This document shows positions 4,146 through 33,006 of a stretch of 64,000 nt of DNA, in pieces. Position numbers and translations under genes: made by a program. The stretch spans positions 27,710 through 91,709 of the forward strand of contig CAMJXE010000001.1 of the NCBI GenBank assembly GCA_946409645.1. The letters run 5' to 3'. The notes beneath the pieces were generated by a model. It saw only the letters and a program-made list of their open reading frames with translations, did not search any database and was not told the origin of the DNA. This stretch comes from an uncultured Bacteroidales bacterium. Its GTDB lineage: Bacteria; Bacteroidota; Bacteroidia; Bacteroidales; WCHB1-69. Position 1 is the stretch's first letter. Each line of letters starts with the position of its first letter.

Positions 4146-4566
4146 AGAAGGGGAATTGTGCTTCGGCCGCTGCTGTCCGCTGTGGCCGGGAACATTCTTC
4201 ACGCACTTATTTTTCCTCTTTTTCTAACATGCGAAACTTGAATAAAAAATAGAAGTCCCCATTATTTATTAACAACGACTTGCTTATTTTCAACAGCTAA
4301 AATTGAAAGAAATTTGCGGAATTAAAGATGAAAAAAAACAAACCATTATACCGAAAAGAGAACAAAAAACTCACAGAATACTATTCAGGTGAGTGGACCG
4401 TTACCTGGAACGGAAAGGTGGTGTGGCAAGGAAGAGTAGTGGGAGCCGGGGCGGGAATGCAGGACACGACAGACAGTCTGCCGAAAGAAGAGACAGGAGG
4501 CCACAAATGAAACAGAGGGAAGCAAAGCGGGTCGGCATAGTCGAGGAAACGGGCTGCTAAAAATTG

Positions 4567-4574
4567 TATTTTTG
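4567..4574 (+). promoter_or_regulatory. -7 box TATTTTTG for the repeat-protein gene
   Basis: Exact TAnnTTTG. The ATG at 4579 is only 4 nt downstream, so the mRNA is near-leaderless. Confidence 0.45.
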
Positions 4575-4578
4575 CCGC

Positions 4579-5013
4579 ATGGTAAAACGAATCACCACCC
4601 TCATCGCCCTCATCGTCTTCTTCGCCGTCACAGGCGAAGCCCAGACCGTCTATCAAAAGGACAAATGGGGCGCGAAACTTTTCTACATGCAAGAGAACAC
4701 CATCCGGATGAAGGACCGCTGGGGCGATCCGCTGCTATGGTATGACGCGGCCACGCAGCAGGTGCGGCTGAAGGACCGCTGGGGGCAGCCCCTGATCTAC
4801 ATGGACGGACATACGGTGCGACAAAAGGACCGCTGGGGCGAGCCGCTGCTCTACTTCGACGGGCTGACCATCCGACAAAAAGACCGTTGGGGCACTGCGC
4901 TCTATTACCTCGACGGACAGACCCTGCGGCAGAAAGACCGCTGGGGAGCGCCGGTCTATTACTTTGATTTCATCCCCGACCGCTGGCAAATCGCCTGCCT
5001 GATTCTGATGTAG
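4579..5013 (+). CDS. secreted protein made of six tandem ~17-aa K-D-R-W-G repeats
   Basis: Signal peptide MVKRITTLIALIVFFAVTGEAQ, followed by [VIL]R.KDRWG.PL.Y.DG.T repeated six times. ORF-track start 4564 (MYFC..) is a read-through of the promoter box. Confidence 0.7.
   Translation: MVKRITTLIALIVFFAVTGEAQTVYQKDKWGAKLFYMQENTIRMKDRWGDPLLWYDAATQQVRLKDRWGQPLIYMDGHTVRQKDRWGEPLLYFDGLTIRQKDRWGTALYYLDGQTLRQKDRWGAPVYYFDFIPDRWQIACLILM
4648..4968 (+). repeat. 51-bp-period coding tandem repeat (6 units)
   Basis: AAGGACCGCTGGGG-type cores recur at about 51-bp spacing. Confidence 0.8.
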
Positions 5014-5031
5014 CCCGGCCGCATAAACCCA

Positions 5032-5080
5032 CACAAGTCACAAATCACTAATCACAAATCACAAGTCACAAGTCACAATC
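5032..5080. repeat. heptamer array, CACAART x7
   Basis: cacaagt cacaaat cactaat cacaaat cacaagt cacaagt cacaatc. It lies between the repeat-protein stop and the SNF2 promoter. Confidence 0.9.
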
Positions 5081-5091
5081 CGAATTTTTCC

Positions 5092-5099
5092 TACTTTTG
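5092..5099 (+). promoter_or_regulatory. -7 box TACTTTTG for the SNF2 gene
   Basis: Exact TAnnTTTG; ATG at 5121. Confidence 0.5.
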
Positions 5100-10000: not shown

Positions 10001-10035
10001 ATTTTGTGGAATAACACGTAAGATTAAACATAAAG

Positions 10036-11292
10036 ATGATTAAAAGAAATATACAAATAACAACAAACGATGATTCCGCAATCATCACGCATTATCTTCA
10101 AAATGCGAACACCAAATACGCCAAGCCTTTTGAAAAGGATGCATTAAACTTATTATACGGCAAAGAGGATGTTGTGCAAGTCGGAATGGTCAAAGAGCCT
10201 GACCCTCAATACAATTTATTCCCTGAACTATTCTCTGTTCCTTTCCCTGCTCCTAAAAATCCAAAGTTTACATTCATTGATCTGTTTGCAGGCATTGGAG
10301 GTTTTCGTATTGCCATGCAAAATCTCGGTGGAAAATGTGTTTATTCTTCAGAGTGGGATTCACAAGCACAAAAAACCTACTTGGCAAATTACGGGGAGGT
10401 TCCTTTTGGTGATATAACAAAGGAGACAACAAAGCAATACATTCCTGACAATTTCGACGTTCTTTGTGCAGGATTTCCATGCCAGGCTTTCTCTCTTGCT
10501 GGCAAACGCCGTGGTTTTGAAGAAACTCGAGGTACTTTGTTCTTTGATGTGGCTGAAATATTGCGCAGAAAACGCCCCAAAGCATTCTTTTTAGAAAACG
10601 TAAAAGGTTTGGTGATTCATGATAAAGGTAAAACCCTCGACACAATCCTGAACGTGTTGCGAAATGATTTGGATTATTATGTACCCGATCCAGAAATCGT
10701 CAATGCTATGAACTTTGGAGTTCCACAACATAGAGAGAGAATTTATATTGTTGGATTCCGTAAAGACATGAAAGTCAAGAATTTTAAATATCCAGAACCT
10801 ACAGATAAGACCAAACGATTCATCGATATAAGGGAAGACAAAGAAGTCTCTCCCAAGTATTATCTTTCAACTCAATACCAGCAAACATTAATTGAGCACA
10901 AAAAGCGTCACGAGAGCAAGGGCAACGGATTTGGTTATGAAATCATACCAGATGATGGTGTTGCCAATGCCATTGTTGTTGGAGGCATGGGACGCGAACG
11001 AAATATAGTGATAGATCATCGTTTAACGGATTTCACACCAGTCACAAACATTAAAGGTGAGATCAATCATGATGGATGGCGGAGGATGACACCTAGAGAA
11101 TGGGCGAGATTGCAAGGGTTCCCCGACTCGTTTATAATACCCGTTGCTGATGCTTCTGCATATAAGCAATTTGGGAATTCTGTTGCTATTCCTGCCATTC
11201 AGGCTACAGCAGAACAAATCATTAAAAGAATAAAACTTGATAATAATAAATCATATGGGAGAATTAGTAAATCAGCAAATAGCAAAAAATGA
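10036..11292 (+). CDS. DNA (cytosine-5)-methyltransferase
   Basis: Motif I FIDLFAGIGGF, motif IV GFPCQAFS, motif VI ENVKGL, motif VIII QHRERIYIVGF, motif X GNSVAIPA. The start could instead be ATG 10186. The region is AT-rich. Confidence 0.9.
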   Translation: MIKRNIQITTNDDSAIITHYLQNANTKYAKPFEKDALNLLYGKEDVVQVGMVKEPDPQYNLFPELFSVPFPAPKNPKFTFIDLFAGIGGFRIAMQNLGGKCVYSSEWDSQAQKTYLANYGEVPFGDITKETTKQYIPDNFDVLCAGFPCQAFSLAGKRRGFEETRGTLFFDVAEILRRKRPKAFFLENVKGLVIHDKGKTLDTILNVLRNDLDYYVPDPEIVNAMNFGVPQHRERIYIVGFRKDMKVKNFKYPEPTDKTKRFIDIREDKEVSPKYYLSTQYQQTLIEHKKRHESKGNGFGYEIIPDDGVANAIVVGGMGRERNIVIDHRLTDFTPVTNIKGEINHDGWRRMTPREWARLQGFPDSFIIPVADASAYKQFGNSVAIPAIQATAEQIIKRIKLDNNKSYGRISKSANSKK

Positions 11293-24412: not shown

Positions 24413-25288
24413 ATGCTATTTACCAACAACATCATCACCCTTGAGGTGTCGGAACATGGGGCCGAGATGCAGAGCCTCACGAAAGACGGACGTCAGTATC
24501 TGTGGACGGGCGACCCGCAATTTTGGAACCGCCGCGCGCCCATCCTCTTTCCCGCTGTGGGCAAGCCCTACAACAACGAAATTCACGCGGACGGCGTCGC
24601 CTACCCGCTGTACCAGCACGGCTATGCGCGCGACAGCAAGTTTGCGGTGGTCGCCTCTGACAGCGACCACGAACTGCACCTGAAAATGCTGGAGAACGAG
24701 CATTCGCACGCGTACCCATACAAGCTGGGGCTGGAGGTTCGTTACCAGTTGGAAGGCAATACTGTGAAGGCGGTTTGGACTGTGGAAAATCTCGACGACA
24801 AGGAGGCCTACTTCCAGATCGGCGGCCACCCGGGATTCCTGCTGCCGGATTATGATCCCGACAGAATGGTGAACGGATATGTCCGTTTCTTCAACAAAGA
24901 AGGGGAACTTGCCGCTCCCACCCTCTTCTCGGACATTGATGACGGATGCCGCGTGCCGCGCAGTTCCAAATCGATGCTGCTCCGCGAGACGCCCCTCATG
25001 CCTAACACGTTCATTCACGATGCCCTGGTGATCGAGCAGGGGCAGGTGACGAAAGTCGAGCTGTGGGACAGACATTGCAATCCCATCCTCAACGTCAACT
25101 GTCCGCAAGCAGAAGCCTACGGCGTTTGGGCGCCCCATAAGAAGGGCTGTCCGTTCGTCTGCCTTGAGCCCTGGTGCGGCATCTGCGACTCCAAAGGGTT
25201 CATCGGGGATGTCTCCGAACGCGAATACATCCACCACCTCGCCCCGCGCGACACGTTCGATTTCGTCTATACCATCGAGATATATTAG
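24413..25288 (+). CDS. aldose 1-epimerase family protein
   Basis: LWTGDPQFWNRRAPILFPAVG .. FQIGGHPGF .. CLEPWCG pattern. Confidence 0.8.
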   Translation: MLFTNNIITLEVSEHGAEMQSLTKDGRQYLWTGDPQFWNRRAPILFPAVGKPYNNEIHADGVAYPLYQHGYARDSKFAVVASDSDHELHLKMLENEHSHAYPYKLGLEVRYQLEGNTVKAVWTVENLDDKEAYFQIGGHPGFLLPDYDPDRMVNGYVRFFNKEGELAAPTLFSDIDDGCRVPRSSKSMLLRETPLMPNTFIHDALVIEQGQVTKVELWDRHCNPILNVNCPQAEAYGVWAPHKKGCPFVCLEPWCGICDSKGFIGDVSEREYIHHLAPRDTFDFVYTIEIY

Positions 25289-25297
25289 TCTCGTCCG

Positions 25298-25852
25298 ATG
25301 ACCGACACGATGACACCCCAGCAGCGGCACTATTGCATGTCGCGCATCCGCAGCAAGGACACCACGCCCGAGAAGCGCGTGCGGCAATGGCTGTGGCAGC
25401 ACGGCTACCGTTACCGCCTCAACGTGAAGGGCGTGCCGGGGAAACCCGACATCGTGATGCGCAAGTACCGGACGGCAATTTTCGTGAACGGGTGCTTTTG
25501 GCACGGACATTTTGTTCAATTCATAATTCATAATGCACAATGCACAATTGAGGATTCAACGTGTTGCAAGATTCCGAAGACAAATAGGGATTTTTGGGTG
25601 ACGAAGATTCGGCGGAACCAGGAGAGGGATCAGAAAAACTATGAGATTCTCTCCGAAAACGGCTGGCAGGTCATCGTGGTGTGGGAATGCCAACTGAAGC
25701 CCAAAACATTGGAGCAGACAATGTTACAAGTGGAGCAACAGCTGCTCGACTATTACATCAAGACCTTCGGCCGCAAATCCAGATCCTACATCCGAATTGA
25801 CGAGGAGAGCCTGCCCATGGCGGCAGAAGACCCCGAAGAGTATGGAATATGA
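25298..25852 (+). CDS. vsr: very-short-patch-repair endonuclease carrying a 13-aa low-complexity insertion
   Basis: RSKDTTPEKRVR..GKPDIV..AIFVNGCFWHGH .. IPKTNRDFWVTKIRRNQERD..VVWECQL. The insertion is FVQFIIHNAQCTI. Confidence 0.8.
   Translation: MTDTMTPQQRHYCMSRIRSKDTTPEKRVRQWLWQHGYRYRLNVKGVPGKPDIVMRKYRTAIFVNGCFWHGHFVQFIIHNAQCTIEDSTCCKIPKTNRDFWVTKIRRNQERDQKNYEILSENGWQVIVVWECQLKPKTLEQTMLQVEQQLLDYYIKTFGRKSRSYIRIDEESLPMAAEDPEEYGI
25511..25549 (+). repeat. 39-bp heptamer-periodic insert inside vsr
   Basis: (g)ttcaat tcataat tcataat gcacaat gcacaat. Same style as the intergenic arrays. Confidence 0.8.
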
Positions 25853-25858
25853 AAATCA

Positions 25859-26428
25859 ATGATCATGATTGAAATCACCCAAGCAAGCAAATCTCATGCC
25901 TCCGACATCGCCAACCTGATCATGACGGCCATGACCGACGAGTGCTGTCTCTATTTTTGCGGCGAAGGCTACGGGTTAGACGACTTCCGCCGGATGATGA
26001 CCGGACTCGTGGAGCGAAAAGACTCGCAATACAGCTACCAAAACACCTTAGTCGCAGTGGACAACGGAAAGGTGGTCGGCGTCTCCGTGAGTTACGACGG
26101 CGGAAAGCTGCACGAGCTGCGCAAAGCATTCCTCGCAGCCGCCAAGGCCCAGATCGGCAAGGACCACACCGGCATGGACGATGAGACGCAGGCCGGGGAA
26201 CTCTACTTGGATTCGTTGGCCGTGCTGCCCGAATACCGGCGCAGAGGTATCGCCAAACGGCTGCTGATGGCCACCAAACAGCGCGCCGACGAGATGGGAC
26301 TGCCAGTGGTCGGACTTTTGGTAGACAAAGGAAACCCCGGCGGGGAGGCACTCTACGCCAGCGTCGGATTCCGCTACGTGAACGACAGCCTCTGGGGCGG
26401 CCATCCGATGAAACACTTGGTGCTATAA
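25859..26428 (+). CDS. GNAT-family N-acetyltransferase
   Basis: LAVLPEYRRRGIAKRLL acetyl-CoA-binding motif. Confidence 0.8.
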   Translation: MIMIEITQASKSHASDIANLIMTAMTDECCLYFCGEGYGLDDFRRMMTGLVERKDSQYSYQNTLVAVDNGKVVGVSVSYDGGKLHELRKAFLAAAKAQIGKDHTGMDDETQAGELYLDSLAVLPEYRRRGIAKRLLMATKQRADEMGLPVVGLLVDKGNPGGEALYASVGFRYVNDSLWGGHPMKHLVL

Positions 26429-26460
26429 GGCATCGAAAACACGTAAAATAGAATATTGTG

Positions 26461-26468
26461 TATTTTTG
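26461..26468 (+). promoter_or_regulatory. -7 box TATTTTTG
   Basis: Exact TAnnTTTG; ATG at 26529. Confidence 0.45.
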
Positions 26469-26528
26469 CAGCGGTGACATTGTTGAACTTTATACGAAAT
26501 CTAATAATAATAACTACTACATCAAAAG

Positions 26529-27296
26529 ATGAATACCTATTACATTTTTGAACATTCGACAAAAACAAAAGTCGTTGGAAGTGCCCCGGGGGGACAATTG
26601 GAACTCTTTCAGCCCCTGAATTTTAACAGTATGCAAAATCGCGATGAGTTGCCAAAACAATCGGAATTCAGGCTAAAAGGGAACTCCCGCCTTACAGATT
26701 TACTCTATTGCCTGAATATTAGCACTATCAATAACTTTATTGTCAGTTCAAAAATGTATTCAATATTGAAGGAATTCAATATTCAAGAGCACCAATGGGC
26801 GAGCTGTACCATTAGAAAAAAGGACAAAACCTGGGACTATCATCTGCTCAGATTTGCGCAAACGCGTGATAAAAAAAGGCGTCCTCAGCTCTGTTGTCCA
26901 GAAATGGTGGATTGGAAAAATTCGGTTTTTTTTGAAGATTCCTATGCCCGATTTGGGGGAATAAAAGGGAATGAGCCCATCTTAAAAATCGACAGTTACG
27001 ATGACTATTTGAAAGTACAAGCCGAATATAATCGCAAATTCGATGAACATGAAAACATAGACTTGGCAATAGGTGTTATGAAATTTGCTTTCAACGAGAA
27101 ATATTTGGAGAAAAACAACCCCGATATGTGTTGGTTGTACCCATTGCATTCAAATCCGTTGATTTCGGAAAGACTAAAAACAGCATTGGAGGAAAACGAT
27201 GTCACCAGCGTGGAAACGATGGAAATAAACTCCTATCTCTGTCGCAACGATGCCGAAGTACTGGGCAATATCTTTAAGGAACTTGGGGTGCGGTAG
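26529..27296 (+). CDS. hypothetical protein, possibly Imm11/DUF1629-like immunity protein
   Basis: AT-rich ORF. The MNTYYIFE.. start and the ..FIVSSKMYSILKEFNI.. / ..LISERLKTALEENDVT.. pattern resemble DUF1629 as I recall it. This is a weak call. Confidence 0.45.
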   Translation: MNTYYIFEHSTKTKVVGSAPGGQLELFQPLNFNSMQNRDELPKQSEFRLKGNSRLTDLLYCLNISTINNFIVSSKMYSILKEFNIQEHQWASCTIRKKDKTWDYHLLRFAQTRDKKRRPQLCCPEMVDWKNSVFFEDSYARFGGIKGNEPILKIDSYDDYLKVQAEYNRKFDEHENIDLAIGVMKFAFNEKYLEKNNPDMCWLYPLHSNPLISERLKTALEENDVTSVETMEINSYLCRNDAEVLGNIFKELGVR

Positions 27297-30463: not shown

Positions 30464-30507
30464 TAACTCTACACTAACTCTACACTAACTCTACACTAAC
30501 TCTACAC
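30464..30507. repeat. 11-bp tandem repeat TAACTCTACAC x4
   Basis: Four perfect units. Confidence 0.9.
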
Positions 30508-30510
30508 TGG

Positions 30511-30531
30511 GTTTCAGGTTTCAAGTTTCAG
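30511..30531. repeat. heptamer array GTTTCAR x3
   Basis: gtttcag gtttcaa gtttcag, ending 9 nt from the rfbC stop. Confidence 0.85.
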
Positions 30532-30539
30532 GGGTGTCT

Positions 30540-31100
30540 CTACATACGGGATTCGTATTCAAACGGCGACACGAAATCCTTAAACGCCACTCCCTGCATA
30601 TCCTTCTCCGAAGTAATCGGATTCTCCACCTGCCAGTCGATGTTCAAGTCTTTGTCGTTGAACAAGATGCAGCCTTCGGAGGCTTTGTTGTAGAAGTTGG
30701 AGCACTTGTAGGCGAAGACGGTGTTGTCCTCCAAGGCGGCGAAACCGTGCGCGAAGCCGGCTGGCAAGTAGAATTGGCGGAAGTTCTCAGCAGTGAGCAG
30801 GACGGACTCGTATTTCCCGTATGTGGGACTGCCCTTGCGGATATCGACCGCGAAGTCGAGGCATGCACCGCGCAACACCCGTACGAGCTTGGCCTGTGCA
30901 TACGGCGGCTTCTGGAAGTGCAACCCGCGCACCACTCCCTTCTGCGAGCACGACTGGTTGTCCTGCACGAAATTGTCTAAAACGCCCAACTCTTTGAATC
31001 TTTGTTCGTTATAACTCTCGAAAAAATACCCGCGGTCATCTTTGAAAACCGTCGGTTCGATGATTAACAGTCCTTCAATTTTGGTTTTGATTATTTCCAT
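30540..31100 (-). CDS. rfbC: dTDP-4-dehydrorhamnose 3,5-epimerase
   Basis: FKDDRGYFFESYN .. RGLHFQ .. QAKLVRV .. AGFAHGF. Confidence 0.9.
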   Translation of the reverse strand: MEIIKTKIEGLLIIEPTVFKDDRGYFFESYNEQRFKELGVLDNFVQDNQSCSQKGVVRGLHFQKPPYAQAKLVRVLRGACLDFAVDIRKGSPTYGKYESVLLTAENFRQFYLPAGFAHGFAALEDNTVFAYKCSNFYNKASEGCILFNDKDLNIDWQVENPITSEKDMQGVAFKDFVSPFEYESRM

Positions 31101-31105
31101 TATAT

Positions 31106-31164
31106 GGTTTAAGGTTTAAGGTTTATGGTTTATGGGTTAAAAGGTTAAAGGATTAGAGGGTTAA
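31106..31164. repeat. heptamer array GGTTTAW and variants (~8 units)
   Basis: ggtttaa ggtttaa ggtttat ggtttat gggttaa.. Confidence 0.85.
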
Positions 31165-31183
31165 TGTATTTAGTCGTTTTTTA

Positions 31184-31218
31184 TTCATAATTCAGCATTC
31201 ATCATTCTACATTCTACA
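31184..31218. repeat. heptamer array TTCNNNA x5
   Basis: ttcataa ttcagca ttcatca ttctaca ttctaca, abutting the ClC stop codon. Confidence 0.85.
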
Positions 31219-33006
31219 TTAGTCTTCCGAGTTGTCCGCGATAAACGTCTGATACTCAGATAAGAACTTGGCTTTAGAGACAAATCCAATATATTTGCGG
31301 TCGCGGGTGATGACGGGCATGTTGAAGTTGCCGGTGCGTTTGAACTTCTCCAGCACTTTCGCTGCCGTGTCGTCGTCGTAGATGAACTCTTCGGGCTCAA
31401 TCATCAGGTCCTCGACGTGCACTTTGTCGTAGAGTTCCTGTTTGAAAATAACGTCGCGGTGGTCGTCCATCACCAGGAGACCCGAGAAGAGGTTGTTTTC
31501 GTCGATGACTACAAAGAGGTTGCGCTTGCATTGTGCGATGACATCGGTATAGGTGCGCAGGGTACTGTGAACGGGAATGGTGAGGATATTGGTGTCAATA
31601 GTCTGATGCCAAGGGAGTTTGCGGAGGGCGTATTTGTCTTTGTTGTGAGTGCGCAGGTTGTCTTTTTCGGCTAATGGCTGGGTGTAAACGGAATATTTCT
31701 CGAACGGATTCACGCAGAGGTAGGAGCAGGCGGCGGTAATCATCAGCGGGATCAGAAGCGTATAACCCGTTGAAGATTCGGCGATTAGGAACATAGCCGT
31801 AAGCGGGGCTTGCATCACGCCCGTCATCACGCCGGCCATACCCGCGAGGATGAAGTTCACATACGGCAGCTGGATGTGCAGATAGAGGTTGGCGACGTGT
31901 GCCACCAAAAACCCGGTGAATGCGCCGATGAAGAGCGTCGGGGCGAATACGCCGCCCACACCGCCGGCCGTGGTGGTGAACGTGGTGGCGAAGACCTTCA
32001 TCAGGATGATGCCGATGACCGCCAACACCAATAAGCCTTCATGACCCATCACCTTCAGCAAGGGAGAGTTATTGAACACGGAAATCCACTCTCCGTGCAG
32101 CAGGTCGTTGATGTTGTTATAACCTTCACCGTAGAACGCCGGGAAGAGGTAAATGAGCAGACATAATGCCAACGATCCGATGATCGCCCGCACATATACC
32201 TTCTTGATTTTGCGCATCAGTTTTTCCAGCCAACGCGAAGTGCGCAGGAAATAGACAGAGATGAAGCCGCTGAGCACACCCAAAATAATGTAAAACGGAA
32301 TATTCTGGACCGAGAAACCTTGTGTGCCGCTGATGGTGAACATCACATCCTGCCCGAGAAAAAGCACAGACATCACCGTTCCGGTGGCGGCAGAGAGCAG
32401 CAAGGGAAGTATGGCGCTGCCTGTCAGGTCGAGCATCAGCACCTCAAAAGTGAAGACCAACGCGGCAATAGGCGCTTTGAAGATGGCGGCCATCGCGGCC
32501 GTGGAGCCGCACGCCAACAGCAGAGTGGTCTGGCGTGTGTTAAGGTTGAAAAAACGCGCCACGTTCGAACCTATGGCACTGCCGGTGAGCACAATCGGGG
32601 CCTCCAACCCCACGGAACCGCCGAAACCGACAGTGATGGCGCTCGCCACCATCGACGAATAGACGTTATGGAAACGCAACATGCCGTCGCTTTTGCAGAT
32701 AGACTTCAGGACGATGCTCACCCCGTGGCTGAGGTTGTCGCGCACCACCCGCCGTACAAACAGCAGCGTGAGGAATATACCGATGGGCGGAAAAATCAGA
32801 TAGAGATAGTTGATGTCGGTCACGGCAAACGCCTGGTTGACCAACCGTGTGGTGAAGTGCAGCAAGTTCTTGATGATGATGGCTGCCGCCGCCCCCAACA
32901 TCCCGATAACCACACTGAGAATCAGGACAGTGGTCCTGTCCGTAAAGTGCTTTTTGATGAACCGCCGGCACTTGGCCAATATATATAGAAAAGTCCTATT
33001 TTTCAT
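31219..33006 (-). CDS. ClC-family chloride channel with C-terminal CBS pair
   Basis: GGSVGLEAP and GGVFAPTLFIGA selectivity motifs. The start is moved to MKNRTF, downstream of the promoter box. Confidence 0.88.
   Translation of the reverse strand: MKNRTFLYILAKCRRFIKKHFTDRTTVLILSVVIGMLGAAAAIIIKNLLHFTTRLVNQAFAVTDINYLYLIFPPIGIFLTLLFVRRVVRDNLSHGVSIVLKSICKSDGMLRFHNVYSSMVASAITVGFGGSVGLEAPIVLTGSAIGSNVARFFNLNTRQTTLLLACGSTAAMAAIFKAPIAALVFTFEVLMLDLTGSAILPLLLSAATGTVMSVLFLGQDVMFTISGTQGFSVQNIPFYIILGVLSGFISVYFLRTSRWLEKLMRKIKKVYVRAIIGSLALCLLIYLFPAFYGEGYNNINDLLHGEWISVFNNSPLLKVMGHEGLLVLAVIGIILMKVFATTFTTTAGGVGGVFAPTLFIGAFTGFLVAHVANLYLHIQLPYVNFILAGMAGVMTGVMQAPLTAMFLIAESSTGYTLLIPLMITAACSYLCVNPFEKYSVYTQPLAEKDNLRTHNKDKYALRKLPWHQTIDTNILTIPVHSTLRTYTDVIAQCKRNLFVVIDENNLFSGLLVMDDHRDVIFKQELYDKVHVEDLMIEPEEFIYDDDTAAKVLEKFKRTGNFNMPVITRDRKYIGFVSKAKFLSEYQTFIADNSED

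Follow-up and report, generated by a model that had tools for sequence, protein, structure and literature searches.

A variable, repeat-bearing loop in the Vsr endonucleases of Bacteroidales

The very-short-patch repair endonuclease Vsr repairs T:G mismatches left by the deamination of 5-methylcytosine made by C5 methyltransferases, and the zinc ligands of the Escherichia coli enzyme, which we take from 1VSR and 1CW0 to be Cys66, His71, Cys73, and Cys117, follow the pattern C-F-W-H-x-H-x-C. The catalytic residues of E. coli Vsr are Asp51, His69, and Asp97 (PMC2677866), and its DNA-intercalating aromatic residues are Phe67, Trp68, and Trp86 (PMC4081097). The Vsr-like domain of AbaSI, an active enzyme, contains an 18-residue insertion after the β3 loop that forms two extra strands, β4 and β5 (PMC4081097). 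Short repeats within genes have been described as Rickettsia palindromic elements (RPEs) and intragenic repetitive extragenic palindromes (REPs), many of them in replication and repair genes (Di Nocera et al. 2013, PMC3733652); in two species of Xanthomonas, recB carries different REPs at nearly the same position, and GTAG and CGTC are the tags of two REP superfamilies (PMC3733652). Heptamers repeated in tandem are known as the TAACTGA repeats of Beggiatoaceae, Cyanobacteria, and Bacteroidetes and as the cyanobacterial short tandemly repeated repetitive (STRR) sequences (PMC4679880). Here we describe the vsr gene of an uncultured gut or rumen Bacteroidales bacterium, found in a 64,000-nt stretch of contig CAMJXE010000001.1 (referred to here as the window), which carries an in-frame heptamer array at a site where related vsr genes carry other sequences. 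The explanation that we favor, and consider reasonably likely, is that a permissive loop of Vsr has repeatedly been occupied by short dispersed repeats that are filtered only for an open frame.

The open reading frame (ORF) at 25298-25852 matches the Vsr profile of Pfam, PF03852, with an E value of 1.7e-31 and 108 bits (cutoff, 27) and aligns to E. coli Vsr (PDB 1cw0) with an E value of 6e-25. The single long gap in the latter alignment corresponds to ~14 additional residues in the window Vsr between FWHGH and KIPKTN, which confirms that the segment is extra relative to canonical Vsr. G+C content at third codon positions (GC3) is 0.86 in the 5' part of the gene versus 0.68 in the 3' part. The parts of the gene are as follows.

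25298..25852, + strand: vsr, 184 aa, a very-short-patch repair endonuclease of the "CCKIP" subfamily (Pfam, 1cw0 alignment, AlphaFold2 model).
25298..25510, + strand: 5' part of vsr, residues 1-71; by the roles known from E. coli Vsr, these include the catalytic residue D51, the DNA wedge F67-W68-H69, and the putative zinc ligands C66 and H71.
25511..25561, + strand: variable insert, residues 72-88, FVQFIIHNAQCTIEDST; uninterrupted relatives have just EG there.
25518..25549, + strand: heptamer-array cassette of 32 nt, AATTCAT twice, AATGCAC twice, then AATT (Tandem Repeats Finder, period 7).
25562..25567, + strand: codons of C89 and C90 (invariant in 36 close orthologues; 1cw0 alignment).
25568..25852, + strand: 3' part of vsr (KIPKTN onward), including W100, D111, and C131; lower GC3.

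An insert between CFWHGH and CCKIP was found in all of the 120 best orthologues (71 to 93% identical), for example, FVQFIMHNAQCTIEDSA, DVELVVSSEQLVVKSSN, GVELIVKSEELIVKSGDIEVENSK, NVETRHGTSLQIENSE, and GLAWSENPPRPFGAPLPEGGELSDSK, and the insert columns of a 36-orthologue alignment have no consensus. The subfamily was further sampled as 160 loci (L001 to L160) from genomes and metagenomes of rumen and gut Bacteroidales, Prevotellaceae, and Bacteroidaceae, in which both anchors, CFWHGH and CCKIP, were located irrespective of reading frame. At each of the 118 true sites, the frame is maintained and no stop is present; interruptions of 33 to 144 nt, most often 33 or 51 nt, are found at 114 of them, and the other 4 are uninterrupted. 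A second protein search recovered 18 further uninterrupted forms, most of them GCFWHGH-EG-CCKIP. The preliminary description of this locus had proposed a search for uninterrupted alleles, and these do exist in relatives: the empty site GH-EG-CCKIP is present in L060, L075, and P0221-P0259, and other uninterrupted forms are found in L078 (DG), L147 (DW), and two more proteins (DG and KG). The same description had treated the insertion as peculiar to the strain and had expected a 13-aa gap in all other orthologues. The comparison shows the opposite, namely, unrelated sequences of variable length at the same codon position, so that an equivalent loop of unrelated content is common among orthologues. 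Since more than 100 relatives of this vsr have some other repeat at this position, the site appears to be an old, tolerated "landing pad" rather than a recent disruption. When 11,417 Vsr relatives were clustered, ~30 of the 150 best representatives had long inserts at the site, nearly all of them of the CC[KR][IL] type. A neighbor-joining tree built from 113 flank residues was too noisy to order the uninterrupted forms as ancestral or as secondary losses.

Since the nearest uninterrupted relatives read GCFWHGH-EG-CCKIP, the additional segment in the window is 25511-25561 (51 nt versus 6, or 17 aa versus 2). The borders given previously, 25511-25549, which translate to FVQFIIHNAQCTI immediately downstream of FWHGH, enclose the repeat segment, but the extra segment runs on to 25561 and the sharply repeated core is 25518-25549. 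Likewise, the remark that removal leaves a normal spacing holds for canonical Vsr, which reads GCFWHGH-EGCKYYVL-PKTN at the site and thus has 8 residues from H to P, but not for the uninterrupted form of its own subfamily, which has 6.

Several individual loci deserve separate mention. In L028, a perfect array of AATGGAA (5.4 copies, 2623-2660) forms the C-terminal tail of the vsr ORF, a second array-tolerating place in the gene. L030 contains two vsr paralogues on one contig (at ~288 and ~3187) with closely related inserts, HVTESQVHGSGFMVQGSA and HVTESRAQGAGFMVQGSA. Among the representatives P0290, P0295, P0346, P0267, and P0304, some look frameshifted within or just past the insert and others are very long or fused after FWHGH; pseudogenization, misassembly, or a larger insertion at that position could explain them.

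The insert lies between zinc and catalytic residues, as had been noted from the sequence of the window, and these residues are conserved around it. The alignment of 36 close orthologues shows no variation at residues 34-71 or at S87, C89, C90, W100, D111, and C131. D51, H69, and D111 (E. coli Asp51, His69, and Asp97) and the wedge aromatics F67 and W68 are invariant in both this alignment and a wider one of 138 sequences, and W100 (E. coli W86) is invariant in the former and nearly so in the latter. The presumed zinc residues C66, H71, C89/C90, and C131 do not vary among the 36 close orthologues, with 17 residues between H71 and the next Cys, and most of the catalytic and zinc residues are also invariant in the wider set. 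By its position, C89 or C90 is the predicted displaced zinc ligand, the counterpart of E. coli Cys73. The flanks of the insert are under strong purifying selection: in pairs with the same cassette, the ratio of nonsynonymous to synonymous polymorphism (pN/pS) is 0.57 in the insert versus 0.17 in the flanks, absolute values that are biased because the pairs were picked by insert similarity. Inactivation of the enzyme, raised earlier as one outcome, is unlikely in view of the invariance of D51, C66, F67, W68, H69, H71, C89, C90, W100, D111, and C131 and of the flank pN/pS; the other outcome then considered, a tolerated surface loop, is supported. Judged from these residues, the enzyme is probably active and the arm tolerated.

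Structure modeling, also proposed earlier, gives a β-hairpin for the insert on an otherwise Vsr-like fold. A first AlphaFold2 model made with the 36 close orthologues had a predicted local distance difference test (pLDDT) score of 56.6 and was too poor for use. A second model made with 138 sequences has a mean pLDDT of 77, with a core above 90 and a mean of ~65 in the 10-residue blocks spanning residues 71-90, and it matches 1cw0_A with a probability of 1.00 and a TM-score of 0.72 on the target. From the strands at residues 74-78 and 81-85 in this model, we infer that the insert may encode a β-hairpin.

That the segment is real and heptamer periodic is agreed upon by two measures. Tandem Repeats Finder reports period 7, 4.7 copies, and 84% matches at 25517-25549, and the identity of the insert to itself at lag 7 is 0.64, with 0.51 at lag 14 and 0.18 to 0.33 at the other lags from 2 to 13. 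A lag-7 identity of at least 0.64 occurs in 0.16% of all 51-nt windows across the 64 kb, and these cluster in three places, 5018-5098, 25508-25570, and 31083-31236, the first and last of which are intergenic arrays. If up to 2 mismatches are allowed, TTCATAATTCATAAT is present 5 times in the window versus 0.2 expected; the 32-mer at 25518-25549 is single copy in the window, where none is expected by chance. The G+C content of the insert is 0.31 versus ~0.62 in the 5' flank. As had been suggested, the insert is the same kind of DNA as the intergenic heptamer arrays: its units TTCATAA and CACAAxx recur in the arrays at 31184 and 5032, respectively, and its core is identical to an intergenic spacer elsewhere (see below). 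The intergenic comparators, for which no strand is assigned, are as follows.

5032..5078: intergenic heptamer array CACAAAT/CACAAGT, 6.7 copies.
30464..30532: intergenic 11-mer array, TAACTCTACAC repeated 4.1 times, adjoining a heptamer array, GGTTTCA repeated 3.3 times.
31106..31220: intergenic heptamer arrays GGTTTAA/GGTTTAT, then TTCATAA/TTCAGCA/TTCATCA/TTCTACA, between two minus-strand genes; unit TTCATAA is in common with the vsr insert.

The 11-nt array TAACTCTACAC (30464-30508) is perfect, and the genes on both sides of its spacer are on the minus strand. Within ORF 4564-5013, just upstream of the array at 5032-5078, positions 4774-4962 form a tandem repeat with a 54-nt unit (3.5 copies, 71% matches). 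The insert of the window is not palindromic (fold, -6.7 kcal/mol), and no GAGACG..CGTCTC is found anywhere in the window. A search of 24800-26600 against Rfam with a permissive threshold gave no match, and a scan for sigma-70 promoters and intrinsic terminators, which is ill suited to Bacteroidetes, found nothing beyond shuffles.

Across the orthologues, the inserts are of two main kinds. The first consists of tandem heptamers, such as GTTAGAA, AAATTGA, GGTTCAA, and GAAGTGA/AAAGTGA, or the two AATTCAT and two AATGCAC units of the window; in inserts of at least 45 nt, the strongest autocorrelation is mostly at lag 7 or 14, which is odd for coding DNA. The second consists of perfect palindromes, such as GTAGAGACGCGATTAATCGCGTCTCTAC and GTGGAGACGCAAAATTTTGCGTCTCCAC, which fold at ~-20 kcal/mol, while longer GC-rich hairpin inserts fold at down to -58 kcal/mol. 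The palindromic inserts begin with GTAG and contain CGTC; palindromes of this GTAG/CGTC type are found in the orthologous inserts of L001, L005, L082, L084, L086, L089, and L091. A repeat-free 33-nt form (xVDMQxLENSx) may be the basal loop. For one palindrome family, "TPNPSPKGEG," a pattern search matched the vsr inserts of L049 and L160 alone and none outside vsr.

The same sequences are found at loci unrelated to vsr. The 32-mer at 25518-25549 is identical to a spacer in three IMG/VR viral contigs from different samples, L169 (1670-1701), L172, and L173, where it lies between two minus-strand ORFs, touching a stop codon, with no vsr nearby. A variant of the window cassette, ISIHNAQCIIHNCEN, is in frame within a DUF4391 protein (L170, 6150-6884, minus strand). 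Another vsr cassette, AGTTAGTAGTTAGCAGTGAG, is intergenic in L260 and L261, lying between a stop codon and the start of the next gene, with an AGGAGG-like motif before that start, and GATTTGACGATTTACAATTTAC is intergenic in L262 to L264. The palindrome family lies directly after stop codons in L002, L068, and L158 and was found in 85 viral stretches, several of which have 2 to 3 copies. Further vsr arrays were matched to intergenic arrays of other loci with blastn-short. As a side observation, the 126-kb viral contig IMGVR_UViG_3300021431_000086 contains two different intergenic vsr-type cassettes (L173, 3555-3586, and L264, 4324-4345); therefore, such cassettes are common spacers in that genome.

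Over the 882 kb of fetched loci, period 7 is the commonest class of tandem repeat (159 of 725 rows). Periods 7, 14, and 21 together account for 226 rows, of which 108 are outside long ORFs, 65 are in vsr inserts, and 53 are in other long ORFs. In-frame arrays were found in genes for asparagine synthase (between its two domains), GH43, NUDIX, the ExoVII large subunit, and a PfkB kinase. Since heptamers lie inside other real genes, the invasion of tolerant coding positions appears to be general in these genomes, the vsr loop being a particularly dense host. The locations of these genes, in related genomes, are as follows.

L059, 582-2324: gene with an in-frame heptamer array.
L050, 4184-6379: gene with an in-frame heptamer array.
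L062, 921-1550: gene with an in-frame heptamer array.
L153, 4386-5456: gene with an in-frame heptamer array.
L157, 1340-2299: gene with an in-frame heptamer array.

Insert and flanks have separate histories. In three pairs, flanks at least 93% identical enclose inserts that are 42 to 69% identical. The window and L161 are syntenic, with flanks 94 to 97% identical and a 3' half identical over ~220 nt, and their inserts are 47% identical; L085 and L086 have flanks 96 to 99% identical around a palindrome in one and a 105-nt array composite in the other; and L014 and L105 share identical 45-nt flanks around different arrays of equal length. Conversely, other pairs have inserts 86 to 91% identical and flanks only 69 to 84% identical, and the cassette type of the window is also found in orthologues that are only 56% identical (L012 and L014). 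Within one protein cluster at 90% identity, there are two discrete insert alleles and no intermediates. Alleles differ mostly by sequence and not by copy number, apart from one allele, P0086, with a 21-nt deletion (3 units, 7 aa). These histories fit cassette exchange or repeated acquisition. The vsr genes of the clade comprising the window, L161 to L165, and L081 to L086 are themselves mosaic, with a GC3 of 0.83 to 0.90 in the 5' half and 0.57 to 0.69 in the 3' half, and the 3' halves are nearly identical between strains whose 5' halves differ by 5 to 12%. As the junction of this mosaic is at the insert, recombination there is suggested.

As a rule, repeats are excluded from genes when their unit length is not divisible by three. 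The 34 heptamer-type inserts contain no stop in 609 in-frame codons, versus 65 in frame +1 and 72 in frame +2, and the earlier suggestion that selection holds the frame open thus agrees with the wider sample. In 119 cases, an in-frame codon has a stop triplet at a distance of exactly 7 nt, and in 73 of the 119 the codon differs from that stop by a single base. Stops would often arise in the third unit of a perfect array: were TTCATAA present a third time in the window insert, it would read TCA TAA. The odd third unit could be taken for a stop-avoiding fix made within vsr, but some of the variant units are also present between genes. Selection may therefore filter the copies that are taken up, in addition to acting on later point changes.

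Put together, these findings suggest that the large CCKIP subfamily of Bacteroidales Vsr has an old permissive surface loop that would extend from the zinc ligand His71 to the Cys-Cys pair. The DNA coding for this loop would behave like intergenic DNA, hosting short repeats otherwise found in bacterial and phage spacers, which may be composite heptamer arrays, as in the window, or perfect GTAG...CGTC palindromes, as in other lineages. Its content would turn over separately from the remainder of vsr, by replacement or exchange, probably through recombination of short tracts between alleles, through new insertions or gene conversion with intergenic copies as donors, and through slippage by 7 or 21 nt. 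Selection admits only those versions that are a multiple of three and stop-free. The peptide could then loop out as a β-hairpin that leaves the zinc site and the catalytic center intact, and the product, as judged from its conserved residues, would be a working T:G mismatch nickase in which the sequence of the loop peptide has little or no specific role. The fixed site with its changing content, the open-frame filter, the identity of cassettes to copies between genes, the separate histories, and the invariant residues are seen directly in the sequences; enzyme activity, the hairpin, and the route of replacement are deduced.

Some observations weigh against this explanation. No transposase, target site duplication, or other mark of mobilization was found, RAYT (REP-associated tyrosine transposase) association not having been examined, and no duplication is evident at the insert ends; because of this, "insertion" is inferred from shared sequence only. 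The units of the window, L161, and L164 arrays align in register with parallel changes, which fits concerted evolution in place as well as import. The preferred lengths (33 and 51 nt, or 11 and 17 aa), the conserved loop ends (xV ... ENSx), and the long-lived discrete alleles hint at some constraint or selection at the protein level and would not be predicted by a pure "junk" model. The modeled hairpin is of modest confidence, and the locus sets are skewed toward intact genes, although there are a few truncated or frameshifted representatives (P0290, P0295, and P0346).

An extension of the preferred explanation, which we regard as possible but improbable, is that composite heptamer arrays are an unrecognized class of short mobile cassette and that the Vsr loop is a dedicated hot spot for these arrays and for GTAG/CGTC palindromes. 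Exact units of 20 to 32 nt would be copied between spacers and permissive coding loops in Bacteroidales and phages. The hot spot could result from mechanistic targeting, such as nicking or template switching at the conserved flanks, or alternatively from selected loop diversity, conferring an altered DNA context preference or escape from an inhibitor.

Evolution solely in place, by which an ancestral low-complexity loop would have changed through 7-nt slippage, homogenization of units, and point mutation with no import, is in our judgment unlikely. It would account for the register of the window, L161, and L164 heptamers, which share one odd third unit and have changed in parallel in each unit, and for the difference of exactly 7 aa (21 nt) between P0086 and the common allele. 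Heptanucleotides are also, according to Mrazek 2007 as relayed in PMC4679880, the commonest long simple repeats in many bacteria and are attributed there to polymerase slippage. However, slippage within the loop does not account for composite stretches of 20 to 32 nt that are identical between vsr inserts and unrelated intergenic spacers, for the occurrence of palindromes of the same family between genes, for near-identical flanks around wholly unrelated inserts (palindrome versus array in L085 and L086), or for the lack of intermediates within the 90% cluster.

The loop could also be an adaptive hypervariable arm, a hairpin that touches DNA, a partner, or an inhibitor and is under diversifying or balancing selection, with the repeats as mere raw material and a benefit such as an altered sequence context preference or escape from a phage-encoded inhibitor. 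We consider this doubtful. In its favor, discrete alleles persist across lineages, lengths of 11 and 17 aa are preferred and the loop ends are conserved, the loop starts two residues past the DNA wedge F67-W68-H69, peptides with a 7-aa repeat suit two paired strands, and in AbaSI the corresponding strands are close to the groove of the DNA (PMC4081097). Against it, the content is the same as that of noncoding spacers and palindromes and yields arbitrary peptides, constraint on the insert is relaxed (pN/pS, 0.57), and uninterrupted EG forms are common. In addition, we know of no partner or inhibitor for the Vsr loop. A diversity-generating retroelement was rejected as a source of the variation, as the differences are whole-cassette swaps and not adenine-specific substitutions, although a reverse transcriptase was not searched for.

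A regulator at the nucleic acid level, be it an attenuator or terminator hairpin or a phase variation tract that limits a potentially mutagenic nuclease, is very unlikely. Palindrome alleles do fold at ~-20 to -58 kcal/mol, a change in copy number of a 7-nt unit would shift the frame, and a few representatives are truncated or frameshifted (P0290), but heptamer alleles, including that of the window, fold weakly (-3 to -8 kcal/mol), their tracts are short and impure (2+2 units), and the insert has no Rfam match or terminator-like site. Phase variation in particular was rejected, since none of the 118 loci is out of frame, although three of the best 150 cluster representatives (P0290, P0295, and P0346) look truncated or frameshifted.

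The account first given, a recent strain-specific insertion that is absent from orthologues and inactivating or soon to be so, is refuted by the comparison with orthologues. The low G+C content of the insert next to its 5' flank and its absence from E. coli Vsr would agree with it, but inserts at the same site in 120 of the 120 closest orthologues and 114 of the 118 loci, the same cassette type in the 56%-identical orthologues L012 and L014, and the invariant catalytic and zinc residues in flanks under purifying selection argue against it. Also barely credible is removal of the segment before the mature protein is formed, by an intein, an intron, or ribosomal bypassing: highly conserved motifs like this one are a frequent home of inteins and introns, but an intein is a splicing domain of at least ~130 aa with Cys or Ser at its N end and His-Asn plus Cys, Ser, or Thr at its C junction, whereas this insert has 17 aa, begins F/x-V, and lacks conserved junction residues, and the segment is always a multiple of three and stop-free, as bypassing or an intron would not need, with no Rfam intron match.

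The immediate neighbors of vsr in the window encode an aldose epimerase and a GNAT family protein. One more gene of the window bears on the function of Vsr.

10015..11289, + strand: C-5 cytosine DNA methyltransferase (PF00145, E value of 6.8e-101; motifs FxGxG, PCQAFS, and ENV).

This gene sits 14 kb from vsr, not adjoining it, and is a possible functional partner; with a C5 cytosine methyltransferase in the window, Vsr would have work to do. Downstream of the GNAT gene, the low-GC ORF 26529-27296 (+ strand) has a weak match to Imm11, an immunity protein. In syntenic loci, its counterpart is followed by an AbiEi/AbiEii toxin-antitoxin pair (L161 and L163, 5151-6555), and the region looks variable and possibly acquired.

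If the preferred explanation, a permissive loop filled by dispersed repeats, is right, an essential-looking part of a repair nuclease, its active-site region, can house arbitrary selfish DNA over long evolution without loss of its catalytic residues; the host range sampled here covers more than 100 lineages, with orthologues 71 to 93% identical and subfamily relatives down to ~45%. One position of the Vsr fold is thereby marked as highly permissive, which may be useful in protein engineering. The heptamer arrays of Bacteroidales recur as discrete cassettes at unrelated loci and not just by local slippage, which points to an undescribed copying mechanism. For annotation, such loops should not be counted as disruptions or pseudogenes.

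The literature searched yielded nothing specific on heptamer repeats in Prevotella or other Bacteroidales or on Vsr insertions. Like contingency loci, this vsr has within its ORF a repeat whose unit length is not divisible by three; the vsr array differs in its 2+2 impure units, in the absence of out-of-frame alleles from 118 loci, and in alleles that vary by sequence and not by copy number. The Vsr-like domain of AbaSI and PvuRts1I and the window Vsr both have an insertion of 17 to 18 residues, modeled in the latter as two strands, at the corresponding place in the fold, right behind the loop with the wedge and catalytic residues. The insertion of AbaSI, in contrast, is a fixed family feature that is neither hypervariable nor repeat derived, and it splits no zinc site.

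The RPEs of Rickettsia and the intragenic REPs are similar in that short dispersed repeats that are normally intergenic lie in frame in genes for known proteins and add a tolerated peptide, and the palindromes of the orthologous vsr inserts resemble GTAG/CGTC REPs in starting with GTAG and containing CGTC. No GTAG REPs are reported from Bacteroidetes in the survey of PMC3733652, and the element of the window is, unlike a REP, a nonpalindromic heptamer array. A further difference is that one codon position of the vsr family, between zinc ligands and beside the active site, is filled in more than 100 lineages by many unrelated elements. The known heptanucleotide arrays (Mrazek et al. 2007, STRR, and TAACTGA repeats, as far as they are treated in PMC4679880) are likewise tandem 7-nt units that are mostly intergenic and patchy in phylogeny, and they often lie just upstream of starts or after stops (PMC4679880), positions also seen here. 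The arrays described here differ in being short composites (two AATTCAT and two AATGCAC units) that form exact 20- to 32-nt cassettes at unrelated loci, and that of vsr lies within a coding sequence, in frame. Also different is that nonpalindromic heptamer arrays act as exact cassettes common to spacers, phage contigs, and coding loops.

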